Sequence record: OQ031492
Length of the DNA: 64,000 nt
Reading direction: 5' to 3' (one strand)
Origin: Escherichia phage MRostami-2023b
Shown: positions 4,935 to 53,191 of the stretch, piece after piece
How the letters are laid out: every line of letters starts with the position of its first letter
Position numbering within the stretch: position 1 is the first letter of the stretch
Notes under the pieces: generated by a model
Told to the model about the DNA's origin: nothing
The model's input: the letters and a program-made list of their open reading frames with translations, nothing else
Databases searched by the model: none
Position numbers and translations under genes: made by a program

Positions 4935-7900
4935 ATGGCAACATTCCCAACATATCCAGCAACGTCTCTCGAACAGGGCGTAGACCTGGTTATTTTCTCA
5001 TCTAACCAACTCCATGATGTTATTAATGGAAGTGCTACAGAGAGTATTGAAACAGAATCAGGGTTGATACCAACCCTGAGAAAAGCCCTTGTTGACAACT
5101 TTTTCTTTAAAAGCCCATTGGATTGGGCGCAAGGCACAAACGAAACAGTTTTTAACCAACTTCGTTATTTCCAGAATGGAGTATTGAGCGGTTATTACTA
5201 TGCCCCTAACGCTACATTGGTTAACCCAATCCCTATGCAAGGGACTCCAGTAGGAGATAACAACTGGGTATTGTGGGGACTGAAGACAGAACAATTGGCA
5301 ACAGAAGTCACCCCTTGGGTATATTCTGGTGCAACTGGTTATGAAACAGTAATTAGTCCTCCTTACATCTTTGATAGTGCTATTGTTACGATCAATGGTG
5401 TTATTCAGGTTCTGGGGGAAGCTTTCCGTATAGAAGATAGTAAGATCATCTTATCTGAACCTTTGGGACACGATCCTGCAACAGGACTGCCAAACAAACT
5501 TTTTGCTTATATTGGCAAAATCGTAGCTTCAGCAGATACAGATCCTAATCTAGAGAACCGTCTTGTTAGTTTAGAAACAAAAACGGAAGAACTAACAGAA
5601 AGCATGGATAAAGTCCCTCTGCAAACTATTGCTCGTAAGTATGGTTTGTTAGATGATGAGGTGGCTTACGCAACAGCAGGTCAATCGTTAACAGGGATTA
5701 AAGCTCTGTATGATCCGGTAGCACAGTCTTCCTACACATTACCTCCTAACATCACAGGAACTTTAACATCCTTATCTGTTTCTGGAGTAATGACTTATTC
5801 TGGAGGATCTGTAGACCTTTCTGCACTGGCTGTTGAGCGTGGACAGTTTGTTCATTTGCCTACAAGCTTTGGTAATAACGTAACTCTGACAGCTAAAAAT
5901 CAGACGATTGGACGTGGTGCTGGTCGTTATCGTTGGGCTGGAAGTTTACCAAAAAGTATTTTGGCCTCTGATACATTGGAGACAAGCGGAGGATTAGGTC
6001 CAAATGCATGGGTTCTGACTAATACAGAAGGACTGTTAACTCCTCGTGGTGGAACATACAACGATCTATTCGATGTTGTCTACTTGTCAGAATTTGCTAA
6101 CAATACAACTACCTATACCACACCAGAAGCAGCTTTCCAGGCGGCACTGTTAGCAGCAAAAGCTTCGAAAAGCAAGATTCTCGATGCTTACGGTTGCGAC
6201 ATGACTTTCACGACAAGCTCTTTTGATATTCAAGATATCACTTTGCGTGGTGGTGTGTTCCGTGGTCAACGCGACTATCGTGTGCAGAATGCTACAGTAG
6301 AAGGCACAACTTTCCGTAACTCTCGTGTTATGTATTGGGGTGGTGCTGTGCGCATGTTCGATTGTTTGTGGGACGGTGCTCCTCGCGCAGGTCAAGTTGG
6401 TAGCTTGGTATTCCAAGGCAACCCAATATCAGGTACTTTTGAAATTGATAATTGTACTTTTAAAAACGGGTTATATGGCATTCTTCAACAAGGAACAGGG
6501 GAACCAGTAACACGCGGTGTCTTCCGTAACCTTACCTTCATGGACATGCAAGGTGATGCAATAGAACTGAACGTCATCAATAAACATTATGACGATGGTT
6601 GTGTGATTGAGAATATTTACCTGTCTAATATCGATGGGACTAACGCTCCTATTCCTCTGTCCAACTGGGGTATCGGTATCGGTGTAGCTGGTAAAGGACC
6701 ATATGGTTACGGAATCCCTGATGATCAATATTGTAAGAACATTACAATTCGTAACGTTTTTGCAAAACGTTGTCGTCAGATTGTCCACGTAGAAGTTGGT
6801 CGTAATATCTCTATCGAAAACATTCATGGCGATCCAGATCAAACCGTATCTGTTGGGACAGGTTTGGCAACTGGCGCAGTTGTAATGTATGGAAGTAAAG
6901 ACTTTACGATTGATGGTGTTTATGGAGAGCCTAAAACAGACGGTAGCACACTTGCAAGTAATATCCGTATGATTTACTTGGAGTGGGGAACTAACGCAGT
7001 TCTGGATGAAGAGGGTAATCCGGTAGTTCCGGCACAGGGCAGACCTTCAAACCCATGCTTTAACTATTCTGTTCGTAACATTCACACCAAAACTGGGCGT
7101 GTTTTTGCGGGAGTTTCCGCTGGGCCAGGTTATGAAAACAGAGTTAGCTTTGAAAATATTCGTTGCGCTGCCTTGCAGTTGTTCGGTATAGCTTCTTGGC
7201 TTTCAATGTCTAACATCACCTGTAATATCTTCGATTGTGTTGGTCAACCTGAATCTGGTCCAGGGACATTTTATGATGGATTCTTCCGTAGAGAAAAATC
7301 TGTTCTTGAAATGGTTAACGTAAACTGTTACCCAGATGGCAAGACGATGGTTACTGGTCGTCCACAGTGGAGCCGTTGCCGTTACTCGGATATTCATCGT
7401 GTCAACTGTAATGTTGAAGCTAATATGTATACCAATATCGCAGGTGGTATTGGAGCTATTGTAGGGACAACGGGCAAAGTTTATTACTTAGAGCCTAATC
7501 CTAGTCGAAACATTGATGGAATGCATTTCCCAACAGGGAAAGAGTTTGACAAAGGGGATATGATAGTCAAGGCGGATAATACGTTCTTCCTTGTAACAAC
7601 AAGTGGGGCATATATTCCAGATATCCCAGCTTTCGGTATTCGAGCTACACAGGCAGGAGATACCTTCCTGACACAGAACTTGACTCCTAACGGGACAGCA
7701 ACAAATGCTTCTTGGTTGTATCATTACCCTCTGTCAGCAGGGACACGTATCCGTATTCCTGGCGCTGGTGTAGGTGGAGCAGATTTGGACACAGTTATTA
7801 CTCGTGCACCTTATCAAGATAATGATACGTGGACTAACCCAGTTAAAATAGACATTGCAGATCCAATTGTAACGCCTACAAGTGCTGGAGTTAGAATTAA

Positions 7901-15410: not shown

Positions 15411-18400
15411 CTAATGGCAACTGGCCCAGGAATTTCCCACGTCATATCCAGCAGTAAGCTGAACATTAAGATTGTAAAATTCTCCAGCCTTAGTAACAGC
15501 TAAAGCAGCAAGTTCACCTGCCCGACTATAAGCTGTAAACCATCCACCTTTGGGAGATTCATGAATGTTAGCCCAAATTTGCCCTGTCTCTTTTTCCTTA
15601 TTATGCTTCCATTCTTCGACTTTAGCAAGGCATTCTTTATCAATTTTCTTTTGTTCTTCAGGATCGTCTACTTTCTTCCAACCTAATGATTCAGGTGAAA
15701 ACCATTTGAATTCTACAAGGTTACGAGAAACTTCAAGCTGGGCTTCATCGTGGTATGCAATCATTTGTTGCACGAAGTCTTTATTCTTCCAGTCATCTTT
15801 AAAGAAGTCAACACTTAGCCCTTCTTCTTCGATCATGTCATCATAAATAACCATTGCACGTTTAGCACAGATAACCCCACCGCTTTGGAACAGAGAGTTA
15901 AGAATCGCGTGAGCAGAACGAGTAGGAACCTTACGACCGTCAATACCCAAAACATATTGTTTACCAGTCTTAACCCAAAAATCGTTTAAACGTTCTTTAA
16001 GACGCGCCAATGGGAATGCAGCTTCCCAGAAAGCATCAAACACCAATTGACCTGTAAACTTATCGCTACCAATTGTTTTAGCAACCTTGTCGGCTTGTGC
16101 ACCATAGGTAATACCATACTTAACAGATTTAGCAGGACTACGTTCAAATTTACGTCCAATAGTTTCAGTGATACGTTTTGCCATCATTGTGTGAACATCG
16201 TTAGGTTTCTCTAACAACAGAGCGTTACAATATTCGTGTGGCTCCGGCTCGTACCGCCAACAGTTNNNNNNNNNNNNNNNNNNNNNNNNNNNNNNNNNNN
16301 NNNNNNNNNNNNNNNNNNNNNNNNNNNNNNNNNNNNNNNNNNNNNNNNNNNNNNNNNNNNNNNNNNNNNNNNNNNNNNNNNNNNNNNNNNNNNNNNNNNN
16401 NNNNNNNNNNNNNNNNNNNNNNNNNNNNNNNNNNNNNNNNNNNNNNNNNNNNNNNNNNNNNNNNNNNNNNNNNNNNNNNNNNNNNNNNNNNNNNNNNNNN
16501 NNNNNNNNNNNNNNNNNNNNNNNNNNNNNNNNNNNNNNNNNNNNNNNNNNNNNNNNNNNNNNNNNNNNNNNNNNNNNNNNNNNNNNNNNNNNNNNNNNNN
16601 NNNNNNNNNNNNNNNNNNNNNNNNNNNNNNNNNNNNNNNNNNNNNNNNNNNNNNNNNNNNNNNNNNNNNNNNNNNNNNNNNNNNNNNNNNNNNNNNNNNN
16701 NNNNNNNNNNNNNNNNNNNNNNNNNNNNNNNNNNNNNNNNNNNNNNNNNNNNNNNNNNNNNNNNNNNNNNNNNNNNNNNNNNNNNNNNNNNNNNNNNNNN
16801 NNNNNNNNNNNNNNNNNNNNNNNNNNNNNNNNNNNNNNNNNNNNNNNNNNNNNNNNNNNNNNNNNNNNNNNNNNNNNNNNNNNNNNNNNNNNNNNNNNNN
16901 NNNNNNNNNNNNNNNNNNNNNNNNNNNNNNNNNNNNNNNNNNNNNNNNNNNNNNNNNNNNNNNNNNNNNNNNNNNNNNNNNNNNNNATCGCCAAACAGTA
17001 GTGTGATTCAATTTTTGCTTCCAAAGAGTCGAAGTCGTAGCCGATCTGGAAGTATTTAGGAACTTCTACACCAAACAAGTTACGCATCTCCCATCCAAAC
17101 AAAGATGTGACACGAGGAATATTAGCTACAGATCTATGCTTCATACGAGAGGTTGCAGCATCACATGTAGCGGCTGGGGTAGGAATACGCCCATCCGCCC
17201 TTACTGCGGCTAAGAAACCTTTGTCATATTCTTGATCTTCCTCATCTTCTTCCCAATCAGCACCACCGCCTAAAATAGAGTTTCTACGATGCTTATACGT
17301 TAAGTATTCTACAATCTGTGTAGCATAAGGGAATTTCTCACCTAAAGCTTGCAGGTTAGGACAGATTTCTTTTTCCTGACCTTTGGTAAAACATGGGTTA
17401 GTCAATACTTTAAGACCGCGACCCTTACCTTTTGCTATACGCTCTTGAATCTTCCTTTCCAAGGTTTCCGGTGTGCACTCCAGATGATCACAACGGTCCT
17501 GACAAAAATTAGAAGATAGAGTTTGCTCAACGTAAGCTCGAATACCTTTCTGAAGTTCTTCCTCGCTCTTTTTAATCTTGGTGCCAGATTTAAGAGTCAA
17601 GTCTTTATCTTTATATTCAGACGGTACCCAACCTAATCCTACAAGCCAGTTTTTAATATGGGTTGTATCGTTCAATGTTGCAGGGATGTTAGGATCACAC
17701 AGAGGCTCATCTGCTGCAACTGGCAGTTTCCACTCTTTCCCCAACATAACTAACCACCAATCGCCATCCCTCTCTTCCAAATGACCATCATGTTTCTTAG
17801 CAAAATTGATCATATGGTTAGTTGGCTCTAAGTTCTTTTTAATTTGCAACTTAGGTGGAATAAAAGCTTTAAGATAACCTTTTGTTGCTGGTTTAGGTGG
17901 CAAAATAGGCTCAACGAGTAAACGAAGACGCTCCATTTCTGCATCCAAAAAAGCAAGGTTCTCTTCTGCTTGTTTCATGTTAAAAGCAAACCCACGGTGT
18001 TCCTGGCGTGTAATAATGTCTGCTACACGTTGTTCAAGTTCAAATGGACCTTCCCATTTATCATAATCACCCCATTCTTCCATAAGGTAATTATATACGC
18101 TCGTATTGGCTTTGTTGTCATAGATACAGTAATAAAGCATATCCGCAGCAAAAGTCTTAAATCGATCTTCTTCTGGAATCTCTTTACGGAAATCTATTTT
18201 TACATCACCACCTGCTTTTCGAGAAAGTGCTGCCAAGCTATGTCCTGATTTGCCCTCAATCTTTCGATCTGGGTTTAACACTTTACTCAAAATCAAGGAG
18301 TCAATAAGTTTTACCTTATTTTTGCCCCACGTATTATATTTAACACTGTAATCTAATCCATAAAACAGTTTTGTAGCCAACCAGTCGTAGTTGATACCGT

Positions 18401-26567: not shown

Positions 26568-26587
26568 AGAGGGGGATTTCTCCCCCT
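26568..26587. other. G-run hairpin between TerD-like gene and hydrolase gene
   Basis: gaggggga-tttc-tccccctc perfect 8-bp stem; no clear U-tract. Confidence 0.3.
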
Positions 26588-26606
26588 CAAAATCATTTGT
26601 TAATTA

Positions 26607-27209
26607 TTACGGACATTCATACCATTCTTTTTTACCACCAAAGGCCATCACCACATCACAAATATCCAGACCAGCTTTACCTACACCATATGCTTTCAGC
26701 TTCCATTCCCCATCTTCACGAACCAAGGAAGCCACGTGGCAGATTGTGTTGCCAGCTACTTCAGGAGCCAGGAAGTCAAAATCCAGAATTTCCACATTGC
26801 GCTCGGAGTCGAAGATTTTAAGCATACCTTCAGAAGCATGACCAAAACGTTTCAGACCTGTATCATCATCAATGGTCAGAACAAAGGCAATCTCTTGTGC
26901 ATCAGGAGAGATTTTAGCCAGAGTAATATCAATCTGCTCCATGCTGCCAGTTCCATCACGAACATCGTCACCAGCGAAGGTAGAACGTTCAGGATCAAAC
27001 TTGTTAGCATAGCAAACCAGATGACGTGCAGACAGCATTTCAGGATTGCCAGCGGCATTGTGACGACAAACCAGTGCACTTACATCCAGATCTAGTTTAG
27101 AATCAGATTTCCAAGAGAATTCCAGGCGCAGTTCTTTCAGAGCCGGAGCAACTTTCTTCAGGGAAATTTTTTCGCTAGAGCCTTTTTTCAGGGAAATTTT
27201 ATCAGTCAT
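26607..27209 (-). CDS. TerD-domain protein
   Basis: 200 aa; N-terminus KISLKKGSSEKISLKK and GDDVRDGTGS Ca-binding-like motif typical of TerD/TerE family. Confidence 0.65.
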   Translation of the reverse strand: MTDKISLKKGSSEKISLKKVAPALKELRLEFSWKSDSKLDLDVSALVCRHNAAGNPEMLSARHLVCYANKFDPERSTFAGDDVRDGTGSMEQIDITLAKISPDAQEIAFVLTIDDDTGLKRFGHASEGMLKIFDSERNVEILDFDFLAPEVAGNTICHVASLVREDGEWKLKAYGVGKAGLDICDVVMAFGGKKEWYECP

Positions 27210-27224
27210 TTTTTGTCTCCTCTA

Positions 27225-27494
27225 TTATTTAAGTGTAATACCAGTTACAGTCAATTCTACTTCCAAAAGCTTAGATGTGTTTTGGATTGATACTAATTGT
27301 GCATGATGGTTTAGTTCTACAGCAGAATAATCATTTTCCCCATCATCTACTTTTAAATAAACAATGATTTCACTAAGGTCTAAACCATTTTCGTCAAATG
27401 CATTTTCATAGACGAAAGTATCTCCTACATCCAAATCTTTAATGGTAAGGCATCGTTTATTTACTTTTTGCTCATCAATTTCGAAGTTTAACAC
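27225..27494 (-). CDS. Hypothetical protein, paralogue of 28516-28794
   Basis: LDVGDTFVYENAFDENGLD…VELTVTGITLK parallels the other copy. Confidence 0.4.
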   Translation of the reverse strand: MLNFEIDEQKVNKRCLTIKDLDVGDTFVYENAFDENGLDLSEIIVYLKVDDGENDYSAVELNHHAQLVSIQNTSKLLEVELTVTGITLK

Positions 27495-27723
27495 TTCTTC
27501 CTCCTAATGTTATCTCCGGTTTGTATATACGAAGAATTATAGCATTTTCATTTTCTTTGTCAACCAATTCTTCATAATCAGGCCATACATGAATCTCTAC
27601 TCTACTTACAATATCTTCCATTCGCACAGTCCCAATGAAATACTCTTTGAGACTGCGCATAATGAAAGCTTCTCTCTCGCGCCAATAATTTTCTATGACT
27701 TGAGAGGCAAGCTCGTCGATCAT
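27475..27723 (-). CDS. Hypothetical protein
   Basis: 82 aa, translationally coupled. Confidence 0.35.
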   Translation of the reverse strand: MIDELASQVIENYWREREAFIMRSLKEYFIGTVRMEDIVSRVEIHVWPDYEELVDKENENAIILRIYKPEITLGGRSVKLRN

Positions 27724-28514
27724 TTTTTAGCACCTACTTTAACAACCCACTCTCCGAACTCTTCAGATAAGAGTTTGTCATAAAGCTCTGAATCTGTCAA
27801 GTCTAAATCTTTAATGCCAATAAAACCAACATTATCATAAGCATTTGCCAGTTCTTTCAGGAAGCCAAACTTCTCATTACCAACGCCAACCATGAACCAA
27901 TAAATAGGTTTATTCTTATTCTCTTCGATAAGACGACGAACAGCACTAGGATCACCATTCTCACCATCAGTCTGGAAGAATACAACACCAGGGGTAACGT
28001 CAGCACCTGGTTCAGATACAGCTACAACTTTTTCACGCTCTACAGACACTGTTTCAGTTTTACCAAGCAGACGATTAAAGAAGCCTTTCTTTGGAGCCTC
28101 CTCTTGTACCACTTGTTTAGTGGTAATATATTTAGTAACAGTGCCAAAATACTCATCGTAGATATCTGCCATTACAGGGGCGTAATTTGTTCCACCTCCG
28201 ATACGAACATTACGCATACATTTACCAACATAATCGTCGTAAACATTTGCTGTTGCTGGAGTAAGCTCTTGGGAACTCGTATTGAAGGCCCACATATCAA
28301 TTTGTTGATTATCGTCGAACAGCATACCAAAAGGAAGCAGTTTACCTACAAAATCACTCACTACCCCACTAGAATATAGACCATGCATACTACCAGAAAT
28401 ATCTAGAGCACATGCTACACGAAGAACAATCTTACCTTCATTCAGGTTCTTATTCTTTTTCAGAGAGAAAGCAAGGTTTTCTTGACGTTTTTTCAGGCTG
28501 ATTTTCTCGGACAT
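27720..28514 (-). CDS. von Willebrand factor A (vWA) domain protein with TerD-like N-terminal motif
   Basis: MIDAS motif DISGSM; N-terminus MSEKISLKK. Confidence 0.6.
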   Translation of the reverse strand: MSEKISLKKRQENLAFSLKKNKNLNEGKIVLRVACALDISGSMHGLYSSGVVSDFVGKLLPFGMLFDDNQQIDMWAFNTSSQELTPATANVYDDYVGKCMRNVRIGGGTNYAPVMADIYDEYFGTVTKYITTKQVVQEEAPKKGFFNRLLGKTETVSVEREKVVAVSEPGADVTPGVVFFQTDGENGDPSAVRRLIEENKNKPIYWFMVGVGNEKFGFLKELANAYDNVGFIGIKDLDLTDSELYDKLLSEEFGEWVVKVGAKK

Positions 28515-28515
28515 A

Positions 28516-28794
28516 TTATTTCTCCTTCTTAAGTGTAATATTGGTAACTTCTAAATCTACTTCCACCATATTTGTATCTGGTGGGATGCAATGAGTATAG
28601 CCTCGTTGTGCTAGTGATCCATTAATACAAATCGCACTGTTTGTGGAATTTTTAATGAACACCAAGTTACGGTAGGTATCCAACCCTGCGTCTTCATAGG
28701 CATCATAATACATGAATGTGGCCCCTACGTCAAGATCTTCGAAAGCAATAGGTAAATCCTGACTTTTTTCTTCTTGAATATTGAATCTAAACAC
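28516..28794 (-). CDS. Hypothetical protein, paralogue of 27225-27494 (GTG start)
   Basis: Start re-set to GTG after gaggagg RBS giving M-FRFNIQEE… matching MLNFEIDEQ… of paralogue. Confidence 0.4.
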   Translation of the reverse strand: MFRFNIQEEKSQDLPIAFEDLDVGATFMYYDAYEDAGLDTYRNLVFIKNSTNSAICINGSLAQRGYTHCIPPDTNMVEVDLEVTNITLKKEK

Positions 28795-29350
28795 ACATAC
28801 CTCCTCTACCAATTTTGAAGCCCAAATCGTAAGCTTCCTTAGTGATCTTTTGTAACTCACTTATAGGAAGTGTTACAAGAGGATCATCTTCTTCAATTTC
28901 CATCTTGTCATCTTCTGTTTCAATGAGAGTATTATGCACTTTGTGATAAGGGTTGTCAACACGTTTAAACTTATTCTTTTCTGTGCTGAAAAAACAATCT
29001 GGATCTTCTTCACCATCACCCCAACCTTGGTTAGGATCTCCGTCAGATTGTTCTGTAGGGATTTCACCTGTAAAGTACTCTTCCAGCACCATAGCGATAC
29101 CGTCCCTTGGATTTGAGGAATGCATCAAATCACAAACCTTACTCCAATCCATAGCCCATTCAAATCGTTCACGAACACCATTTTCATCCTCCTTTCCAGA
29201 GAAAACACAACCATAACTATCATAGTTGCCATACATCTCTTCAATAACAACACCATCCTTCAAAAGAAAGAGGTAGCAAGGCGATCCGTCGAAAGAAGTA
29301 GAAAGGGCAGCTTTGCCCGATTCTTTGCACAAAAAACTAAAACAACCCAT
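28787..29350 (-). CDS. Hypothetical acidic protein
   Basis: 187 aa ORF. Confidence 0.4.
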   Translation of the reverse strand: MGCFSFLCKESGKAALSTSFDGSPCYLFLLKDGVVIEEMYGNYDSYGCVFSGKEDENGVRERFEWAMDWSKVCDLMHSSNPRDGIAMVLEEYFTGEIPTEQSDGDPNQGWGDGEEDPDCFFSTEKNKFKRVDNPYHKVHNTLIETEDDKMEIEEDDPLVTLPISELQKITKEAYDLGFKIGRGGMCV

Positions 29351-29544
29351 TACAAACCCTCCTTCAGATTATCAAGAGCTACAGTGGTTTCACAAAATTC
29401 TCCATAAGCTTTATGATGTTCCAGAAAAGCTTCGGGTCCACCCCAGTCATTATCTTGTGTATTCCAGCCATCAATAAAAGCATCTTCAATGATTGTGATC
29501 AGTTCTTGTCGAGTCAACTGGANNNNNNNNNNNNNNNNNNNGTA

Positions 29545-29718
29545 TTATACATCTTCTTCCTCCTCTAAGATATGGAACCCGTAATTACAATAATCCTGAA
29601 AGGTTTCGTGTGCAAGATCTTCTATATCTTCTTGAGACATATCATCTTCAATTTCGATATCTACAACCTCATTGCATCCACACCAAGCAGTTTCAATATT
29701 CACTCGTAATATTTTCAT
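29545..29718 (-). CDS. Hypothetical small acidic protein
   Basis: 57 aa, RBS ggaggagg, ATG; not in ORF table (<60 aa). Confidence 0.35.
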   Translation of the reverse strand: MKILRVNIETAWCGCNEVVDIEIEDDMSQEDIEDLAHETFQDYCNYGFHILEEEEDV

Positions 29719-29915
29719 TACTCCTCCTCCTCATTGAAGTCAATATCTGCAAGGAGTTCGAATTTACGGAAGTTACGACAACCTTCATAAATATAACAAT
29801 CACGACAAACTGCTAGAACACTTGGGGGATATATGCCTCCCATCGGTGCGAATCGTTTTTCGTCATCATAACGGACACCAATGTCTTCATCAATTATATA
29901 GATACGGATTCTCAT
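29718..29915 (-). CDS. Hypothetical small protein
   Basis: 65 aa, overlaps neighbours by 1-4 nt. Confidence 0.35.
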   Translation of the reverse strand: MRIRIYIIDEDIGVRYDDEKRFAPMGGIYPPSVLAVCRDCYIYEGCRNFRKFELLADIDFNEEEE

Positions 29916-31024
29916 TTACCAAGCCCTCGTTTCACAGCAGCTACCATCCCGTCTTCCAGAGATTGAACTTCATTAATATAATCAACACGAGCAGCACGGG
30001 CTTCCGTATTGATGCGGTTAGTTTCTTCCAACATCTTAACCAAGTTTTCCTGATCGTGACGCAGAGTTTCAATATCCAACACTTGACGGTTAGCCAGTGC
30101 TGCTGCTTCGATCTGATTCTGTGTGGCAAGATCGCTACCCAGTTTAATTGCCAGGTTAAATTCATCAAGAACGTTATTCTGCGTCTCTGCTGCTTTCATT
30201 TGACGTAAGCTCTCGATATACATTGAGAAGTTAGCAGAGTAAGCAGGAATAACATTATTTACTATGTTACGCGCAGATCGCATTAAGCTTGCAGAAACTT
30301 TTTGCATACCTTGTACACGCGGTCCCATTTGGACACACAGTAGGCGCAATGCTTTTAAATCTGCAATACGAATCTCCAGAAGATCCAAAGTATCTCGGAT
30401 CACTTGTCGCTGTTCTACTGCATCTTCTGGAAGAGCAGCCAAAGCTTGTTCTTCTTTTTCATAGGTTGCTGTTAGAAGCTGCATATCTCGGTTCAAACTT
30501 GCAGCATATTGTCCAATAGCTTGATGTAGCTTTTCAAGATATACCAAGGAATCTTCTTCTTTGCGAATATCCATTTGAAGGTTCTTTACCAACTCTTCAA
30601 TACGGTTATTAACATTATCAAACTCCCCAAACAGATCTTCTTTCATACCCATAACTTTTTTAATGAGTTTAGTAATACCCTTGCTTTGTTTAATAGAGTT
30701 TGGATCAAGTTGTTTTGCCTGTTTAATCAAAGCTGTGAGTCGTTCACTCATCTGATCGCCTTGATTACTACGTTGATGTTTTAATACCTCGGCATTCAAG
30801 GAACGCAAGGTTGTTCCTGCCTCTGCCCCAATCTCTTCAATCTCTTGTCGGGTCATAGAAGGCAAAACTGGAACTTCTTGCGGTGCCGCTGGTGCATAAA
30901 CAGGACTGGCATCTAACACGCTTGGAGCGAATACAGATTTACTTGCATCGGTTGTTGCAGCAAATACGCTCATTTCAGGCTTCTTCTGACCACCAGTAGC
31001 TGCTTTTAAAAATGGACTTGTCAT
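29912..31024 (-). CDS. TelA-like (toxic anion resistance / KlaA family) protein
   Basis: 370 aa, alpha-helical composition; size and Ter-gene context; by-eye only. Confidence 0.4.
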   Translation of the reverse strand: MTSPFLKAATGGQKKPEMSVFAATTDASKSVFAPSVLDASPVYAPAAPQEVPVLPSMTRQEIEEIGAEAGTTLRSLNAEVLKHQRSNQGDQMSERLTALIKQAKQLDPNSIKQSKGITKLIKKVMGMKEDLFGEFDNVNNRIEELVKNLQMDIRKEEDSLVYLEKLHQAIGQYAASLNRDMQLLTATYEKEEQALAALPEDAVEQRQVIRDTLDLLEIRIADLKALRLLCVQMGPRVQGMQKVSASLMRSARNIVNNVIPAYSANFSMYIESLRQMKAAETQNNVLDEFNLAIKLGSDLATQNQIEAAALANRQVLDIETLRHDQENLVKMLEETNRINTEARAARVDYINEVQSLEDGMVAAVKRGLGK

Positions 31025-31611
31025 TCTTCATTCTCCTCTTCTGCATCTCTTATATATGGTGAAACACCGTACTCTTTAGCTACTTTAACCCAATCGTCCC
31101 ATTTATACAACCATAATTTTCCTTCGGTCCCTTCTTTATCTGATTTCAACCACATATTAGGTTGCTTACCTGGGTGCATGCGATTAGGTTTACGATTATA
31201 ACCTCTAACACATCTTGTCGCAAACCTATCTACCAGAACAAGAACATATTTATATTCGTGGTTCAACGGCTCTTTGGAAGTGGCTTTAGGATTAGCCCCT
31301 AATTCTGCTGCCAGTTTTTGCCAATGAGCACCGTGCCTACTAAACTTACCCATACAACCATCAATAGCATGAGCAATTTCGTGCTTCATTGTATCCACGA
31401 TCATATCTCTTGTGGAGTTCTTATGCAAGTGCCAATTTACAACAACAATTTTATCTCGGTAGTTGCACCAACCGAAAGAGTTATTCACTTTGTTTCTAAC
31501 ACAAGCTTTATATCCTGCTTCACGTAACATGTTGTAGTAAACAGGAAAATCTTCTTTTATTTCCTGCATCACTTCCCACCACAAGAGTTGCAAGTCTCTC
31601 TCGGTATACAT
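31021..31611 (-). CDS. SprT-like zinc metalloprotease domain protein
   Basis: HEIAHAI (HExxH) followed by SRHGAHWQKLAAELG as in SprT-like domains. Confidence 0.55.
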   Translation of the reverse strand: MYTERDLQLLWWEVMQEIKEDFPVYYNMLREAGYKACVRNKVNNSFGWCNYRDKIVVVNWHLHKNSTRDMIVDTMKHEIAHAIDGCMGKFSRHGAHWQKLAAELGANPKATSKEPLNHEYKYVLVLVDRFATRCVRGYNRKPNRMHPGKQPNMWLKSDKEGTEGKLWLYKWDDWVKVAKEYGVSPYIRDAEEENEE

Positions 31612-33212: not shown

Positions 33213-33230
33213 AGCCTCCCGAAGGAGGCT
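33213..33230 (-). terminator. Hairpin (terminator-like) after TerC
   Basis: agcctcc-cgaa-ggaggct; U-rich on minus strand. Confidence 0.45.
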
Positions 33231-33236
33231 CATCTA

Positions 33237-34211
33237 TTAAACAGCAGCTTCTTCTTTTTCAGGGAAGATAAAGCTTGCAATAACACCAAGAGCTAATGTG
33301 CCTAGAACAATCATCAGGCTTACGTTAGGGGAAATATCATGCGGGAGGAATGACCACTTGGCATGAAGTGTTTCACCGAACGGGTGATACATAAGTTTAG
33401 CACCAACAAACACCAGAACCACAGCAACAGCTTTCTCTAAGTGAACCAGATATTTCACAGCTACACTTAACACAAAGAAAAGTGCACGTAAACCAAGAAC
33501 AGCCATCAGCATTGCAGAATAAACTAGCAGAGGTTCTTGTGTCACACCGATCACAGCCGGAACTGAATCAAAAGAGAAGACAATATCTGTAAGCTCAATA
33601 ACAAACACACAAAGAATAGCAGGAGTTGCATATTTAATACCATTCTTAATGGTGATGAACTTTTCACCATCCAGTGCATTGTGCACAGGCAGAACTTTAC
33701 CTACTAAACGAACAGCCCAATGCTTAGAGTAATCAATATCCTCTTCTTCGTCACCACCTTTGATGATAGCCACGGCAGACCAAGCTACAATCAAACCGAA
33801 CAACACTTGGACCGACCAATGAAGGTTAAACAAAGCGGTCCCTGCTGCAACAAAAATACCTCGGAAGACAATGGCTCCTGCAATCCCCCAAAGTAAAATC
33901 TTATGTTGGAGATGTGTGCTCTTAATTCCAAAGCTTGCAAAAATTGCCATGAACACCATCAGGTTATCTACAGAAAGACTCTTTTCCAACACATAGCCAC
34001 TTAGGAAAAGCGCGGCAAACTCTTTACCATGTTCTACCCAAATGAATGCGTAATATCCTAAAGCTAAAGCAATCCAAAAAACAGACCAAAGCAAAGCAGA
34101 TTTAATTCCAATTTCTTTATTCTCTTTGTGACCAAAGAAATCAATACCAATAGACAATGCTAAAATACCAACTAAAACAACTACATCAATAATTGGGAAA
34201 CCAAGTTGCAT
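33237..34211 (-). CDS. TerC-family integral membrane protein
   Basis: 324 aa multi-TM protein with EKSLSVDN signature typical of TerC/Alx family. Confidence 0.7.
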   Translation of the reverse strand: MQLGFPIIDVVVLVGILALSIGIDFFGHKENKEIGIKSALLWSVFWIALALGYYAFIWVEHGKEFAALFLSGYVLEKSLSVDNLMVFMAIFASFGIKSTHLQHKILLWGIAGAIVFRGIFVAAGTALFNLHWSVQVLFGLIVAWSAVAIIKGGDEEEDIDYSKHWAVRLVGKVLPVHNALDGEKFITIKNGIKYATPAILCVFVIELTDIVFSFDSVPAVIGVTQEPLLVYSAMLMAVLGLRALFFVLSVAVKYLVHLEKAVAVVLVFVGAKLMYHPFGETLHAKWSFLPHDISPNVSLMIVLGTLALGVIASFIFPEKEEAAV

Positions 34212-34524: not shown

Positions 34525-34998
34525 TTAAAGTTTATAAATAGTCACATCGTGACCTGTTTTTACTAAAGTTTCTTCAATCATCACTTGGATGATAGCCCAA
34601 TTACCTCCAGCATATCCAGCGCCAATCATAGGTAAGCCGATCTTACATTTTTGGTCACGGAGAAGCAAATCGTTAGCCATAGCTATTAGTGCATCGTAAA
34701 GTGCATCATAGTCCAACTGACGACCTTTAGCATTGTATCCGTAACGGTATTGCCCGTATAGATTATATACCAAAGGGTCTGATTGTTCGTCTGGCACCCC
34801 TAAACTAAAACAACCTAGTTTACTTTGATCACCAGCCATTGTGTCTAAGTCTGCTGCATATGCGTAAGGAAATGCTTGTTTGATTTGTGGGGCAATACCT
34901 GCCCCCATATTACACATACAGTTGCAACAATGAGCAATAACAGTTACTTCACCTGCTTTAGCGGCATCAATAAGATTACCTGTTTTCATTTTAAGCAT
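34525..34998 (-). CDS. Macro-domain (ADP-ribose binding/processing) protein
   Basis: Start set at MLKMKTG after RBS; VIAHCCNCMCNMGAGIA…LPMIGAGYAGGNW pattern. Confidence 0.55.
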   Translation of the reverse strand: MLKMKTGNLIDAAKAGEVTVIAHCCNCMCNMGAGIAPQIKQAFPYAYAADLDTMAGDQSKLGCFSLGVPDEQSDPLVYNLYGQYRYGYNAKGRQLDYDALYDALIAMANDLLLRDQKCKIGLPMIGAGYAGGNWAIIQVMIEETLVKTGHDVTIYKL

Positions 34999-35011
34999 TT
35001 TTAGCTCCTTA

Positions 35012-35839
35012 TTACAGAATGTGTTGTTTTGTGTAACGATCCAAGAATTCAAAGTTTTCAGCATACTTTGAAATTCGGTTGTAACCTTCTCCCAAGCATC
35101 CAAAGAAAAGTTGCTCTACATAGTAATGTGGCAATTGGCTAAGAATGATTTTGAAGTCTTCATGATTTTGGCCCATAAGATACTTAATAGGACGAACAAG
35201 ACACTGTGCATCACGTTCTTCATTAATCATTTTAACAAACGCTTCTGGTGTATTAATGTAGTTAAAATTCAGTTTAGCTTCGGTATCTGCTTGATTACCT
35301 TCGTATTTTGCAAAATACAAGAAGTAAACATCATTTTTAACTTGATTTTCATCAAGGATCTCAATCAGTTTGTCTTCATGCGTTCCAGTGATATTTACAT
35401 CATCAATGAATACAAGCTTCTTATCACCCCAGAATTCTTTGTTGCAGTAGAATGTATCCCCATCAATAAGTTTCTTACGACTAGCTTTATCCAAGAAGCC
35501 ATAATCGTTAATATAGCTAACTTTACGATGAATAATATCCAGTTCTGCTGAACGACCTTGATCATATTGTGCTTGCAACATATTAAAGTAATTAATAAAA
35601 TGATCTGTCATCATTGTTGCAGCATTATGCACATGGTTGTAAGGAGAAGGAATGATAACAAATTGTTCCCCAATATGTTTCATTGCCACTTGAGCAAAAA
35701 ACTGAAGTGCCAATTCTTTACCCATACGACGCGCGGCTTGGTTACTACCAAATTTCAATTTTGAATAATCTTGGATATCAAAAGTAGCAGTTTCCAGGTC
35801 ATCAAATTTATTTGCAAAAATTTGAGTTTGATTACGCAT
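35012..35839 (-). CDS. Type I phosphoribosyltransferase-like protein
   Basis: PRPP-binding motif KLVFIDDVNITGTHE. Confidence 0.5.
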   Translation of the reverse strand: MRNQTQIFANKFDDLETATFDIQDYSKLKFGSNQAARRMGKELALQFFAQVAMKHIGEQFVIIPSPYNHVHNAATMMTDHFINYFNMLQAQYDQGRSAELDIIHRKVSYINDYGFLDKASRKKLIDGDTFYCNKEFWGDKKLVFIDDVNITGTHEDKLIEILDENQVKNDVYFLYFAKYEGNQADTEAKLNFNYINTPEAFVKMINEERDAQCLVRPIKYLMGQNHEDFKIILSQLPHYYVEQLFFGCLGEGYNRISKYAENFEFLDRYTKQHIL

Positions 35840-36488
35840 TTACAATTTCTCCTCTTTTAAGTTTCTCTAGTAAGTCGTTAGGGTTCTTAATATGACAGAA
35901 GTTAAATCCTAAGTCAACACATTTTCCATCATATTCTTCACTATCGCCTACGTGCAACACTTCGTGCCCTAACAGAGGGATCGGAGAATACGTGAGCGTG
36001 CGAGCAAAGAATCGCGGATCTGGTTTACAAAGTAAAGCTTCATCCGAGAAATGGGTGAACTCAAAACAATTCCAACTATCAAACTTACAAGCACGACGCA
36101 GGATATCCCCTGATATGAAGTTGGTATTGCTCTTAATACTCAAATCATAACGCCCCGAAAGATACAGCAAGTACATCGGTAGATCCACAGCTACATGAGG
36201 TGGAAACTTAAGGAACCATTGTTCACACTCGAAACGNNNNNNNNNNNNNNNNNNNNNNNNNNNNNNNNNNNNNNNNNNNNNNNNNNNNNNNNNNNNNNNN
36301 NNNNNNNNNNNNNNNNNNNNNNNNNNNNNNNNNNNNNNNNNNNNNNNNNNNNNNNNNNNNNNNNNNNNNNNNNNNNNNNNNNNNNNNNNNNNNNNNNNNN
36401 NNNNNNNNNNNNNNNNNNNNNNNNNNNNNNNNNNNTTTGCAGTGATCAGTGTGTTCCATACATCAAAAGAGATATGTTTAATAGTCAT
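35832..36488 (-). CDS. HAD-superfamily hydrolase-like protein (interior masked by N)
   Basis: N-terminal ISFDVWNTLI (motif I-like), later KPDP and GDS; 199 N inside. Confidence 0.4.
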   Translation of the reverse strand: MTIKHISFDVWNTLITAXXXXXXXXXXXXXXXXXXXXXXXXXXXXXXXXXXXXXXXXXXXXXXXXXXXXXXXXXXXXXXXXXXXRFECEQWFLKFPPHVAVDLPMYLLYLSGRYDLSIKSNTNFISGDILRRACKFDSWNCFEFTHFSDEALLCKPDPRFFARTLTYSPIPLLGHEVLHVGDSEEYDGKCVDLGFNFCHIKNPNDLLEKLKRGEIVNA

Positions 36489-37110: not shown

Positions 37111-37335
37111 TTAAAATGGAAGTCTTTGAAGTTCATCTCCTCCGATATCAAGTAATTTAGCAACATCTCGATCAGAAAGCAACTCTTTTCTTTGTAAAAT
37201 ATCCACAAGGGTTGCAAGAATGTCCTTAACGTCCCGATCACTGTTCTTCAAAAGTTCTCCTGCCGTCCCTACTCTATCTCCTACAGCAAAATATGTAACC
37301 ATGAAACCTCCTAAGTTAATCTGATTGCCAACCAC
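37111..37335 (-). CDS. Hypothetical small protein
   Basis: 74 aa ORF overlapping nrdG start. Confidence 0.3.
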   Translation of the reverse strand: MVGNQINLGGFMVTYFAVGDRVGTAGELLKNSDRDVKDILATLVDILQRKELLSDRDVAKLLDIGGDELQRLPF

Positions 37336-37786
37336 TTGCCGTTTTGGTCCATAATCTTTGATTATCTGACCCTCTGAAAGGTTTTGTAGTTGGATTGTTT
37401 ATTTCATACTTTCCGTCTACAATAATGTCAACAAGATTTTTAATATACAAAGGCACTTCCTCAAAAGTATATCCTGTATACACCATTATATCTTTGCTTG
37501 ACCCATAAACGTCTCTAACCTTTTCTATAAGGTTTTTAACATTGTAAATATTCTGCGGATCTAATGGCTCTCCTCCTAAAATTGTTAAACCTTTTACAAA
37601 CGGTCTTGACAAATCTTTTAAAACTTGCTCTACATTTTCGTGAGTAAACGGTTTCCCATAAGAATAAGACCAGGCTTTTTGGTTAAAACAGCCACGACAA
37701 CCGTGGCTACAACCACTAACCCAGAGGGAGCACCTAACTCCCTCACCATTAATAAGATCTACAGGTTCGTATCCTGCAAAATTCAA
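37316..37786 (-). CDS. nrdG: Anaerobic ribonucleotide reductase activating protein (radical SAM)
   Basis: CSHGCRGCFN (CxxxCxxC) motif; overlaps nrdD stop. Confidence 0.8.
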   Translation of the reverse strand: MNFAGYEPVDLINGEGVRCSLWVSGCSHGCRGCFNQKAWSYSYGKPFTHENVEQVLKDLSRPFVKGLTILGGEPLDPQNIYNVKNLIEKVRDVYGSSKDIMVYTGYTFEEVPLYIKNLVDIIVDGKYEINNPTTKPFRGSDNQRLWTKTASGWQSD

Positions 37787-39597
37787 AAATGTTTCTCCCT
37801 TTGCAAAACTTCCTGCATTTTACCTTTGTTATAAGGCCGTGAATTAGGGGCAGAAAGATACCCTGATACACGTCTAACTACAGAAATAGTTTCTTCTTCA
37901 TGGTTGCCACAATCAGGACACTCAAACCCTTTAGCCGTTGCCTTAAATTCCCCATGAAAACCACACTTAAAGCATTGATCCACGGGCTGATTAATACCAA
38001 AATAGTGAATATGTTCATAAGCGTAGTCTACTAAAGTCTCCAAAGCTTCTAAGTTATTCTTTAAGTTTGGTGTTTCGACATAACTTATGTTACCACCATT
38101 ACTAATCTGTGCAAAACCTGCTTCATAATCCCATTTTTCAAAAGGGTTTGTTACCAACCACACAGGTTGATGAAAAGAGTTAGTAAGATAGTCTCTTTCT
38201 ACCAAACCTGGGTATTTTTCATTTAAAGCTGTTGCAAACTTATAGCACAAAGATTCTGCTGGAGTTCCATAGAGACTAAACGCCAAATTAGATCGTTCTT
38301 TAAACACAGCACACACATCTTTCATATGTTGCAGAATGTTTTTACCAAGTTCCTTTTTATCTTTTTCTTCTGGATAAAGGATTTCCAAAGCTTCGGCAAG
38401 ACCTACATAACCAATACTAATAGAAGCATAACCACCTTCAAACAAAACACCAATTTCATCGTTGGCATTTAAACGCGCTAAAGCCCCTTCCATGAAAAGA
38501 ATAGGGTTTTCAGATGCTTTGGTATGTCTGATACGGTTTACACGTAGCATGTGAGCATCGTAGGCTATCTCCATATGTTTATTAAGAAGATCGGTGAAAG
38601 ATTCTCCTTTACTTCTCGCTTCCGCAGCGATCAGAGGTAAGTTGATAGAAACTACTCCAAGGTTGAATCGTCCATCGTATTTTTCTCCTTGTTCTGTGAC
38701 ATAGTACGACAAAAAGGAACGACAACCCATACTCGTAACAGTGCCATCTGCTGATCCCGTAACTTCTTTGTTCAAAGGAACAGAAATAAAATCTGGATAA
38801 ATACGATCAGCACAACATGCCAAAGCTTGTTGCTTAAGGTCATAGTTAGGATCACTAGGTTTCATGTTAACACCTTCTTGTAAAAAGAAAATAACTTTAG
38901 GGAATACAGGCGTTACATGATCTTTGCCTAGACCATTACTATGCACTTTAAGATAGTTAGCTGTGATCATTCTGCCAAAAACAGAGGTATCCAGACCCAT
39001 ACTGATTGTAATAAAAGGAGATTGTCCATTAACACTCATTAAAGTATTAACCTGATACAAGAGAGTTTGCATAGCATCATATACATCTTGTTCGGTCATT
39101 TTTAGGGCTTCTTTCCTTGCATAACAACCGTAGCGACGTTTGGTTATCTCCATGTTTTTAAGGAAACTAGCTTCAACATAAGGACTAAGACCTTTATCAA
39201 TGTGCGCACACGTCTGACCTCCATACTGACTGGAGGCAACAGCTTGGATGATTTGAGTTAGCACTGTGGTAGCTACTCCAATAGATTTTGGTTTTTCTAT
39301 CTGTGCGGCACCGATTTTAAAACCATTTTCTAACATATCTTGATAATTAACAAGACAACAGTTTGTAAGAGGAGAGAGCAGATAATCCAAGTCGTGAATA
39401 TGTCCAAAACCTTCTGTATGCCACTCTGACAAGTTTTTTGGCAGTATCTGTGTCATTGCCATATGTTTGCTTAAAATCCCCGCCAAGAGATCCCTATGCG
39501 TGTTAACGAGGTGGGAAGGTTTGTTTGCATTCTCTCTAGTGTATGTTTCTGAAGTACGATCTAAAAAAGAAAAAACATCTTGGTACAAATCTTTCAT
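37783..39597 (-). CDS. nrdD: Anaerobic ribonucleoside-triphosphate reductase
   Basis: 604 aa; C-terminal Zn ribbon CFKCG…CPDCG and glycyl-radical motif RRVSGYL. Confidence 0.9.
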   Translation of the reverse strand: MKDLYQDVFSFLDRTSETYTRENANKPSHLVNTHRDLLAGILSKHMAMTQILPKNLSEWHTEGFGHIHDLDYLLSPLTNCCLVNYQDMLENGFKIGAAQIEKPKSIGVATTVLTQIIQAVASSQYGGQTCAHIDKGLSPYVEASFLKNMEITKRRYGCYARKEALKMTEQDVYDAMQTLLYQVNTLMSVNGQSPFITISMGLDTSVFGRMITANYLKVHSNGLGKDHVTPVFPKVIFFLQEGVNMKPSDPNYDLKQQALACCADRIYPDFISVPLNKEVTGSADGTVTSMGCRSFLSYYVTEQGEKYDGRFNLGVVSINLPLIAAEARSKGESFTDLLNKHMEIAYDAHMLRVNRIRHTKASENPILFMEGALARLNANDEIGVLFEGGYASISIGYVGLAEALEILYPEEKDKKELGKNILQHMKDVCAVFKERSNLAFSLYGTPAESLCYKFATALNEKYPGLVERDYLTNSFHQPVWLVTNPFEKWDYEAGFAQISNGGNISYVETPNLKNNLEALETLVDYAYEHIHYFGINQPVDQCFKCGFHGEFKATAKGFECPDCGNHEEETISVVRRVSGYLSAPNSRPYNKGKMQEVLQREKHF

Positions 39598-52282: not shown

Positions 52283-53191
52283 NNNNNNNNNNNNNNNNNN
52301 NNNNNNNNNNNNNNNNNNNNNNNNNNNNNNNNNNNNNNNNNNNNNNNNNNNNNNNNNNNNNNNNNNNNNNNNNNNNNNNNNNNNNNNNNNNNNNNNNNNN
52401 NNNNNNNNNNNNNNNNNNNNNNNNNNNNNNNNNNNNNNNNNNNNNNNNNNNNNNNNNNNNNNNNNNNNNNNNNNNNNNNNNNNNNNNNNNNNNNNNNNNN
52501 NNNNNNNNNNNNNNNNNNNNNNNNNNNNNNNNNNNNNNNNNNNNNNNNNNNNNNNNNNNNNNNNNNNNNNNNNNNNNNNNNNNNNNNNNNNNNNNNNNNN
52601 NNNNNNNNNNNNNNNNNNNNNNNNNNNNNNNNNNNNNNNNNNNNNNNNNNNNNNNNNNNNNNNNNNNNNNNNNNNNNNNNNNNNNNNNNNNNNNNNNNNN
52701 NNNNNNNNNNNNNNNNNNNNNNNNNNNNNNNNNNNNNNNNNNNNNNNNNNNNNNNNNNNNNNNNNNNNNNNNNNNNNNNNNNNNNNNNNNNNNNNNNNNN
52801 NNNNNNNNNNNNNNNNNNNNNNNNNNNNNNNNNNNNNNNNNNNNNNNNNNNNNNNNNNNNNNNNNNNNNNNNNNNNNNNNNNNNNNNNNNNNNNNNNNNN
52901 NNNNNNNNNNNNNNNNNNNNNNNNNNNNNNNNNNNNNNNNNNNNNNNNNNNNNNNNNNNNNNNNNNNNNNNNNNNNNNNNNNNNNNNNNNNNNNNNNNNN
53001 NNNNNNNNNNNNNNNNNNNNNNNNNNNNNNNNNNNNNNNNNNNNNNNNNNNNNNNNNNNNNNNNNNNNNNNNNNNNNNNNNNNNNNNNNNNNNNNNNNNN
53101 NNNNNNNNNNNNNNNNNNNNNNNNNNNNNNNNNNNNNNNNNNNNNNNNNNNNNNNNNNNNNNNNNNNNNNNNNNNNNNNNNNNNNNNNNNN
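52283..53191. other. Masked sequence (909 N)
   Basis: N run; content unknowable. Confidence 0.9.

Follow-up and report, generated by a model that had tools for sequence, protein, structure and literature searches.

We analysed a stretch of 64,000 nucleotides (hereafter, the window) from Escherichia phage MRostami-2023b (sequence record OQ031492), a phAPEC8-like coliphage (Phapecoctavirus), and found that its Ter-like gene cluster encodes two small paralogous proteins, P92 and P89, which both belong to the family phrog_11278. We propose, with a probability of about 45%, that phrog_11278 proteins are a dedicated accessory partner of a pair of Ter proteins encoded beside them, namely, a TerF-like protein with a von Willebrand factor A domain (vWA) and a TerD-domain protein. 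The family comprises two position-specific types, an ‘upstream’ type located before the vWA gene and a ‘downstream’ type located between the vWA and TerD genes, directly before the latter, and both types are retained in Phapecoctaviruses. It is a real, if modest, and previously undescribed lineage-specific accessory family within a type of phage cluster that is already known; new here are its vWA-adjacent position, the two position-specific subgroups, and the variation in copy number from 1 to 3.

P89 and P92 are true paralogues and real protein-coding genes. BLASTP aligns them over the full length, without gaps, with 29 of 89 residues identical (33%, E=3e-13), and their Smith-Waterman score is 123, compared with a mean of 26.0 +/- 4.6 and a maximum of 54 for 5000 shuffles (z=21). 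Each protein gives a full-length match to PHROG 11278 (P89, residues 1-89, E=7e-45; P92, residues 1-92, E=4.2e-51), and a hidden Markov model (HMM) of the family detects exactly two copies in the window. AlphaFold2 (AF2), run with 18 family sequences, predicts a small, beta-rich P92 with good confidence (pLDDT 85.6, pTM 0.75); the model consists of five main short strands and one helix, with an additional two-residue bridge marked by DSSP, and its best match in BFVD is an independent model of the phAPEC8 orthologue of P89 (TM 0.82-0.84, root mean square deviation 1.9 A). The preliminary description of this DNA, which located the two open reading frames (ORFs) at 27225-27494 and 28516-28794 and called them clear paralogues, was right on both counts, given the significant alignment, the shared PHROG, and the like predicted fold. 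That these ORFs are not genes at all, their likeness being due to chance or to duplicated non-coding sequence, could be argued only from their small size and from the GTG starts in the window; this possibility is effectively refuted by the alignment statistics, the strong Shine-Dalgarno (SD) sequences, the confident AF2 model, and the presence of both proteins in PHROG 11278, as well as by the steady length of the family, whose ORFs stay open at 87-93 aa across 25-90% identity. The conserved motifs of the family are G-x-T-F and G-L-D, the latter within an invariant, exposed loop, [YF]-E-x-x-G-L-D. Neither P89 nor P92 matches Pfam, and the family profile has no match among PDB sequences. Comparison of the family profile with those of TerD and vWA shows no relationship, which rules out that P92 and P89 are fragments of either protein.

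The family is small and consistently found next to one gene. When 1.84 billion representative proteins were searched exhaustively with the HMM, no more than about 13 small relatives (54-93 aa) emerged, and single-protein scans of IMG/VR (P0036 and P0028) returned nothing, or one weak match (L007) that the family HMM did not confirm. The profile search also returned giant proteins (0.5-5.7 kb); four of them were scanned and contain He_PIG, DUF11, ankyrin or HYR repeats, with many short-stretch matches. We judged these hits to be spurious accumulations of score on a short G-x-T-F-like motif rather than homologues. Every family member with a readable neighbourhood adjoins a vWA-TerF-like gene, either just before it or between it and the TerD gene. 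In phi92 (Justusliebigvirus), the order is gp175-gp174-gp173-gp172, with gp174 the family protein, gp173 the vWA protein and gp172 TerD; both this phage and Klebsiella phage 05F01 (family-vWA-TerD) have a single upstream copy and nothing between the vWA and TerD genes. A distant, uncultured metagenomic lineage (L008, L009, L013 and L014) has a single downstream copy in the order vWA-family-TerD-SleB, with identity to the window of 48% for vWA, 40-43% for TerD, and 25-32% for the family protein. At the locus L008, a gene with a Band_7/SPFH domain, encoding another membrane-scaffold component, follows TerD (2095-2574), beside the vWA-family-TerD trio. One upstream and one downstream copy are found in Phapecoctaviruses, PsgM04F, L011 and L012, and L010 has three, two in tandem upstream of vWA and one downstream. 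The tandem pair of L010 (positions 6001-7855 of a 56-kb Logan contig, SRR12532581) combines one copy of the PsgM04F type with one of the Phapecoctavirus type, which suggests recombination between lineages.

A neighbour-joining tree of the family resolves three clades, namely, the upstream copies, the downstream copies of the Phapecoctavirus/PsgM04F group, and the distant downstream copies. The upstream and downstream copies (P92 vs P89) are only 33-38% identical, compared with 54% and 45% between the window proteins and their respective PsgM04F orthologues. Because the divergence of the paralogues exceeds that of the orthologues, the duplication is old and position-specific rather than recent. 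We also considered, and rejected, an origin of the downstream module by copying of P92 together with its neighbouring gene, as P82, the protein encoded between vWA and P89, is unlike P187, encoded before P92, or any other ORF of the chain. A P82 homologue precedes the downstream paralogue with the same 20-nt overlap throughout the Phapecoctavirus/PsgM04F group, including L011 and L012, and is missing in L008 and L013. Thus, where the preliminary description had the two paralogues flanking the vWA gene, P92 indeed abuts it, but P89 is set apart from it by P82.

In every case, the gene next after the family gene encodes a product that starts with a KISLKK-type motif. Indeed, an N-terminal motif, M-x-x-K-[IVL]-S-L-K-K...S-L-K-K, is common to vWA and TerD in all lineages examined, and the DNA comprising the 3′ end of a paralogue and the 5′ end of the next gene is 70% identical over 83 nt between the two sites in the window (27150-27265 and 28488-28565), so that the repeated unit may be ‘small gene plus KISLKK start’. 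At the upstream site, the connection is particularly close. The last codons of P92 (AAG AAG GAG AAA TAA) contain the SD of the vWA gene, and the stop codon lies 1 nt before the vWA ATG. The C-terminal tail of upstream copies, K-(K/E)-E-K, encodes this SD, and the stop-to-ATG spacing of 0-1 nt is kept in phi92, 05F01, PsgM04F, L010 and the window. The conserved spacing and the embedded SD fit coupled, roughly equimolar expression of the upstream copy and vWA. The metal ion-dependent adhesion site (MIDAS) motif of the vWA protein is complete (D38-x-S40-x-S42, T109, D183), and its residues are invariant in 8 phage homologues.

The downstream copy appears to have a signal of its own. A perfect extended sigma-70 consensus, a candidate promoter, lies inside P82, its -10 element preceding the P89 GTG by 42 nt, and is the sole exact match to TTGACA-N(15-19)-TATAAT in the 64-kb window, where 0.13 are expected and at least one occurs in 12% of shuffles. 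It is kept at the same place in PsgM04F, L010, L011 and L012 despite the divergence of the surrounding DNA; in phi92, which lacks P82 and P89, a promoter-like site matching at 10 of 12 positions (TTGACT-16-TAAAAT) is located in the spacer between the vWA and TerD genes. The conservation of this internal consensus suggests that P89 and TerD can form a separate transcription unit, expressed from the promoter in P82, with P92 expressed together with vWA. A GC-rich hairpin shortly after the TerD stop codon (fold z=-3.2 vs shuffles) is the likely 3′ boundary of the unit.

Taken as parts of one mechanism, these features would work as follows. The upstream copy would be made with vWA, as ribosomes completing P92 would terminate 1 nt short of the vWA ATG, over the SD that P92 itself encodes, and the downstream copy would be made with TerD via read-through and/or the sigma-70 promoter inside P82. 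Each copy would serve as an adaptor or regulatory subunit bound to the vWA/TerD assembly, and the complex would then join TelA and TerC at the membrane to carry out the phage Ter function. Ligands of vWA domains generally present an acidic residue to the MIDAS metal. By analogy with MIDAS-engaging ligands such as those of the integrin I-domain, the [YF]-E-x-x-G-L-D loop might offer its acidic residue to the metal site of the phage vWA, the MIDAS of which is complete. A bolder version of this scheme, which we consider unlikely, is that the phage TerF-type vWA has bespoke MIDAS ligands or adaptors in the phrog_11278 proteins, one paralogue serving vWA and the other TerD, such that the phage uses small subunits of its own to rewire or target the Ter membrane-stress machinery. 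As for that function, Iyer et al. 2021 (PMC7824862) proposed superinfection exclusion or stress protection for phage Ter systems.

The main rival to the partner reading is that the paralogues are passenger genes kept by synteny: the small ORFs would be fast-evolving phage ‘filler’ or host-takeover genes without a tie to Ter, syntenic within one broad lineage, and the second copy would be a neutral, old duplication. We regard this as somewhat unlikely, although several observations weigh in its favour and against a dedicated partnership. The family HMM has no match in Klebsiella KP13-16, Caulobacter BL47, Pseudomonas phiPsa374 or MT836679, all of which encode a vWA-TerF-like protein, so the family is not required for vWA/TerD function in general. 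The family loci retrieved are all on phage-like contigs, none in the context of a cellular genome, and all of them keep the order TelA...vWA-TerD-SleB, such that adjacency to vWA could partly reflect inherited synteny. The copy number of 1 to 3 implies some dispensability. Other points speak only against the partnership. The fold of P92 gives no functional hint, since a Foldseek search of the PDB with the model yielded nothing significant (best, FeoA-like 2k4y, E=0.44, probability 0.33, TM 0.37-0.43); the weak, non-significant top matches are SH3-like (FeoA, the eIF5A N-domain, the SH3-like domain of uL2, and KOW). For the chain proteins, PADLOC and NCBIfam returned nothing but a far-sub-threshold NCBIfam match for TerD. 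Finally, clear SDs (GGAG/GAGG-type, 5-10 nt upstream) precede all chain genes except P82 and SprT; with an SD of its own on nearly every gene, overlap is no demonstration of coupling.

Turnover among the other, unrelated small ORFs of the chain, with P187 swapped for an unrelated 239-aa gene in Klebsiella 05F01 and P82 absent from L008 and L013, can likewise be read as the behaviour of filler. Yet the family gene keeps its vWA neighbour amid the turnover of the surrounding small ORFs, it persists at identities as low as 25-30% with an unchanging length and conserved motifs, it occupies two different positions that are each directly 5′ of a gene with a KISLKK-starting product, and the stop/SD/ATG arrangement with vWA is conserved. 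Overall, phrog_11278 is a lineage-restricted accessory family, not a universal Ter component.

The density of gene overlaps, which the passenger explanation can also claim because tight overlaps are frequent throughout the genome, deserves separate consideration. Eight of the 10 junctions in the chain from SprT and TelA to TerD, where every gene is on the minus strand, overlap, by 1, 4, 8 or 20 nt. The preliminary description gave overlaps of 1-8 nt between TelA and TerD, which holds for 7 junctions; of the other three, one overlaps by 20 nt and two do not overlap. Overlap is enriched in the chain compared with the same-strand junctions elsewhere in the window (17 of 60 with crude, SD-based gene calling; Fisher p=0.003) and with the annotated flanks of a relative (5 of 14, p=0.04). 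Overlaps are still frequent genome-wide, with about a third of the junctions elsewhere overlapping, and dense overlap is therefore a genome-wide style, denser than average in the chain, rather than a special device. The chain resembles coupled genes of phage operons in its ATGA and TAATG junctions and in the SD-less P82, but most of its other genes have a strong SD of their own. Thus, the sequence permits translational coupling without requiring it. The earlier suggestion that the paralogues are accessory subunits co-translated with TerD and vWA is plausible, though only partly supported.

A further alternative is that the family proteins are negative regulators or chaperones rather than stable subunits, that is, small inhibitors that hold the MIDAS or TerD in check until a signal arrives, or folding helpers that are subsequently released. 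This reading, which strikes us as quite improbable, shares the context evidence of the partner explanation, and the translation of each copy just before its presumed target is the order expected of a chaperone or an antidote. Furthermore, both paralogues in the window start with GTG behind a GGAGG-type SD, all other chain genes starting with ATG, and these GTG starts could yield sub-stoichiometric amounts. The GTG start is shared with phi92 but is not conserved in the family, given that orthologues in PsgM04F, 05F01, L008-L013 and the distant lineage start with ATG, and the sequences carry no sign of lability or of a toxin-like partner.

P92 and P89 are encoded within a larger arrangement of Ter genes (Table 1). 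The TelA-like, vWA and TerD genes named in the preliminary description are borne out by the Pfam matches to PF05816, PF10138 and PF02342. With TerD, the vWA-TerF-like protein, TelA, TerC, PRTase_3 and the macro-domain protein all encoded on one strand, the locus is a fairly complete phage Ter cluster of the kind discussed by Iyer et al. 2021 (PMC7824862). A strong terminator-like hairpin is located at 33213-33230, just after TerC.

Table 1. Features of the Ter-like cluster in the window, in the direction of transcription of the minus-strand chain. Junction distances are in nt, with negative values for overlaps; the two junctions of the N-run ORF were placed from relatives.
Feature	Position	Strand	Length	Evidence and remarks	Junction with next gene
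NrdG and NrdD	37316-39597			beyond the HAD-type ORF	
Probable HAD-type ORF	35832-36488			largely masked by a 199-N run (36237-36435)	
ComF-like PRTase	35012-35839			PRTase_3, PF15610, E=8e-42	
Macro-domain protein	34525-35103			upstream of TerC	
TerC	33237-34211			Pfam PF03741, E=5e-40; upstream of the chain	
SprT-like metallopeptidase	31021..31611	-	196 aa	Pfam PF10263, E=4e-9; first gene of the tight chain; weak SD	-4 (ATGA)
TelA-like	29912..31024	-	370 aa	Pfam PF05816, E=3e-33; phrog_5890 ‘tellurite resistance’, E=1.5e-139	-4 (ATGA)
P65	29718..29915	-	65 aa	phrog_24000; function unassigned; annotated in relatives	-1 (TAATG)
P57	29545..29718	-	57 aa	phrog_1997; acidic; junction and PHROG match	-8
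N-run ORF	29350..29552	-		phrog_14200 in relatives; spans the 19-N run 29523-29541	-1 (TAATG)
P187	28787..29350	-	187 aa	phrog_14928; Phapecoctavirus and Justusliebigvirus only	-8 (P187 stop over P92 GTG)
P92, upstream paralogue	28516..28794	-	92 aa	phrog_11278; GTG start	+1
vWA-TerF-like	27720..28514	-	264 aa	Pfam PF10138, E=1.3e-37	-4 (ATGA)
P82	27475..27723	-	82 aa	phrog_22387; no recognisable SD	-20
Candidate promoter	27536..27563	-		perfect extended sigma-70 consensus (TTGACA-16 nt-TGcTATAAT); inside P82	
P89, downstream paralogue	27225..27494	-	89 aa	phrog_11278; GTG start	+15 (spacer carries SD)
TerD-domain protein	26607..27209	-	200 aa	Pfam PF02342, E=3e-28, 98.9 bits vs cut-off 25.3; last gene of the unit	
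GC-rich hairpin	26569..26588	-		GAGGGGGA-GAAA-TCCCCCTC; 18 nt after the TerD stop; U-tract weak	
Promoter-like site for the SleB endolysin gene	26568-26540			after the hairpin	
SleB-type endolysin gene				after the hairpin 3′ of TerD	

Across the 4.6 kb surrounding the paralogue locus, the window shares 98-99.6% identity with numerous genomes of Phapecoctavirus (among them phAPEC8, PNJ1809-36, tuntematon and TSP7_1). These are myophages of E. coli with genomes of about 150 kb, and their records label the small genes of the chain as hypothetical proteins. Two phages with other host labels, ABPW7 (OP562383, Acinetobacter) and ZCKP1 (MH252123, Klebsiella), are 98-99% identical to the window DNA, the P92 encoded by Campylobacter phage B15 (MG065650) is 98.9% identical, and Campylobacter phages C3 (MG065656) and A110a (MG065689) match at the level typical of phi92-like phages; such labels on close matches to coliphages may reflect contamination or broad host claims. 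Among the other small proteins of the chain, P187 has no match in Pfam, PDB, PADLOC or NCBIfam, and P57 has a borderline match to DUF7167 in Pfam that falls below the gathering threshold (23.2 bits vs 24.4, E=7.5e-5).

The ORF across the N-run was held to be unconfirmable in the preliminary description. It is present in relatives, as the alignment with TSP7_1, SF1-1 and PNJ1809-36 shows, but its two visible parts in the window are in different frames. Relatives carry two alleles, of 67 aa or 132 aa, separated by a 195-nt indel (L003:3351-3554 and L002:3351-3749), the 132-aa allele being extended at its N-terminus by a Cys-rich segment. Taking the 19 N as 19 bases, the ATG in the window (29552-29550) does not share a frame with the conserved C-terminal part that ends at 29350. 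Every short-form record has one base more than the window, and because of the missing base, translation from the ATG at 29552 would meet a stop codon shortly past the N-run; the conserved part could start only within the masked stretch or at a TTG at 29517 (55 aa). The flanks of the N-run are 99% like those of long-form phages and its borders resemble the short form, making this a third, mosaic junction, which found no exact match in pattern scans of IMG/VR and is shared by no GenBank phage record. The window is interrupted by eleven N-runs, between 9 and 909 bases long (16266-16986, 52283-53191 and 36237-36435 among them), several of which lie inside genes, so that ORF calls across N-runs are provisional.

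Clusters of Ter and TelA genes occur widely in bacteria, on plasmids and in large phages and confer resistance to tellurite, colicins and phages. The Ter-dependent stress-response and tellurite-resistance system (TerZABCDEF, TelA) was reportedly described by Anantharaman, Iyer and Aravind in 2012. Like that system, the window has TerD, a TerF-type vWA with an intact MIDAS, TelA and TerC, and, in encoding PRTase_3 and a macro-domain protein on the same strand, it agrees with the phage Ter clusters described in PMC7824862. Of the nucleoside-like metabolite module of the Ter system (PRTase and HAD phosphatase), the window has the PRTase_3 gene and a putative HAD ORF that is largely masked. By contrast, the phrog_11278 protein is not a recognised component of the Ter system and was not found in the four other phage clusters named above. 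The accessible portions of PMC7824862 and of the phiKp34 study (PMC8386662) mention neither the family nor its pairing with vWA/TerD, we found no paper in the literature describing the family or its vWA/TerD link, and PHROGs, although matched over the full length of both paralogues, offers no function or context. Pairs of MoxR and vWA chaperones are mentioned for phages in PMC7824862, but the cluster in the window does not encode a MoxR ATPase. A 2026 study of gut jumbo phages reported two terD genes flanking an unannotated gene within one operon transcript (PMC12880540), a similar theme in terms of arrangement.

If only passengers, P92 and P89 would make the locus an ordinary piece of a well-sequenced phage genus. 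As a phage-specific small protein kept before vWA and TerD in two specialised copies, however, phrog_11278 is a plausible physical partner judging by its genomic placement, and if the binding is real, it would offer cheap entry to the assembly and targets of the vWA/TerD module. Should the proteins be bespoke ligands of the phage vWA, they may rewire the Ter machinery, for example, for superinfection exclusion, and a binder of about 90 aa would provide an experimental handle on what vWA/TerD complexes do.

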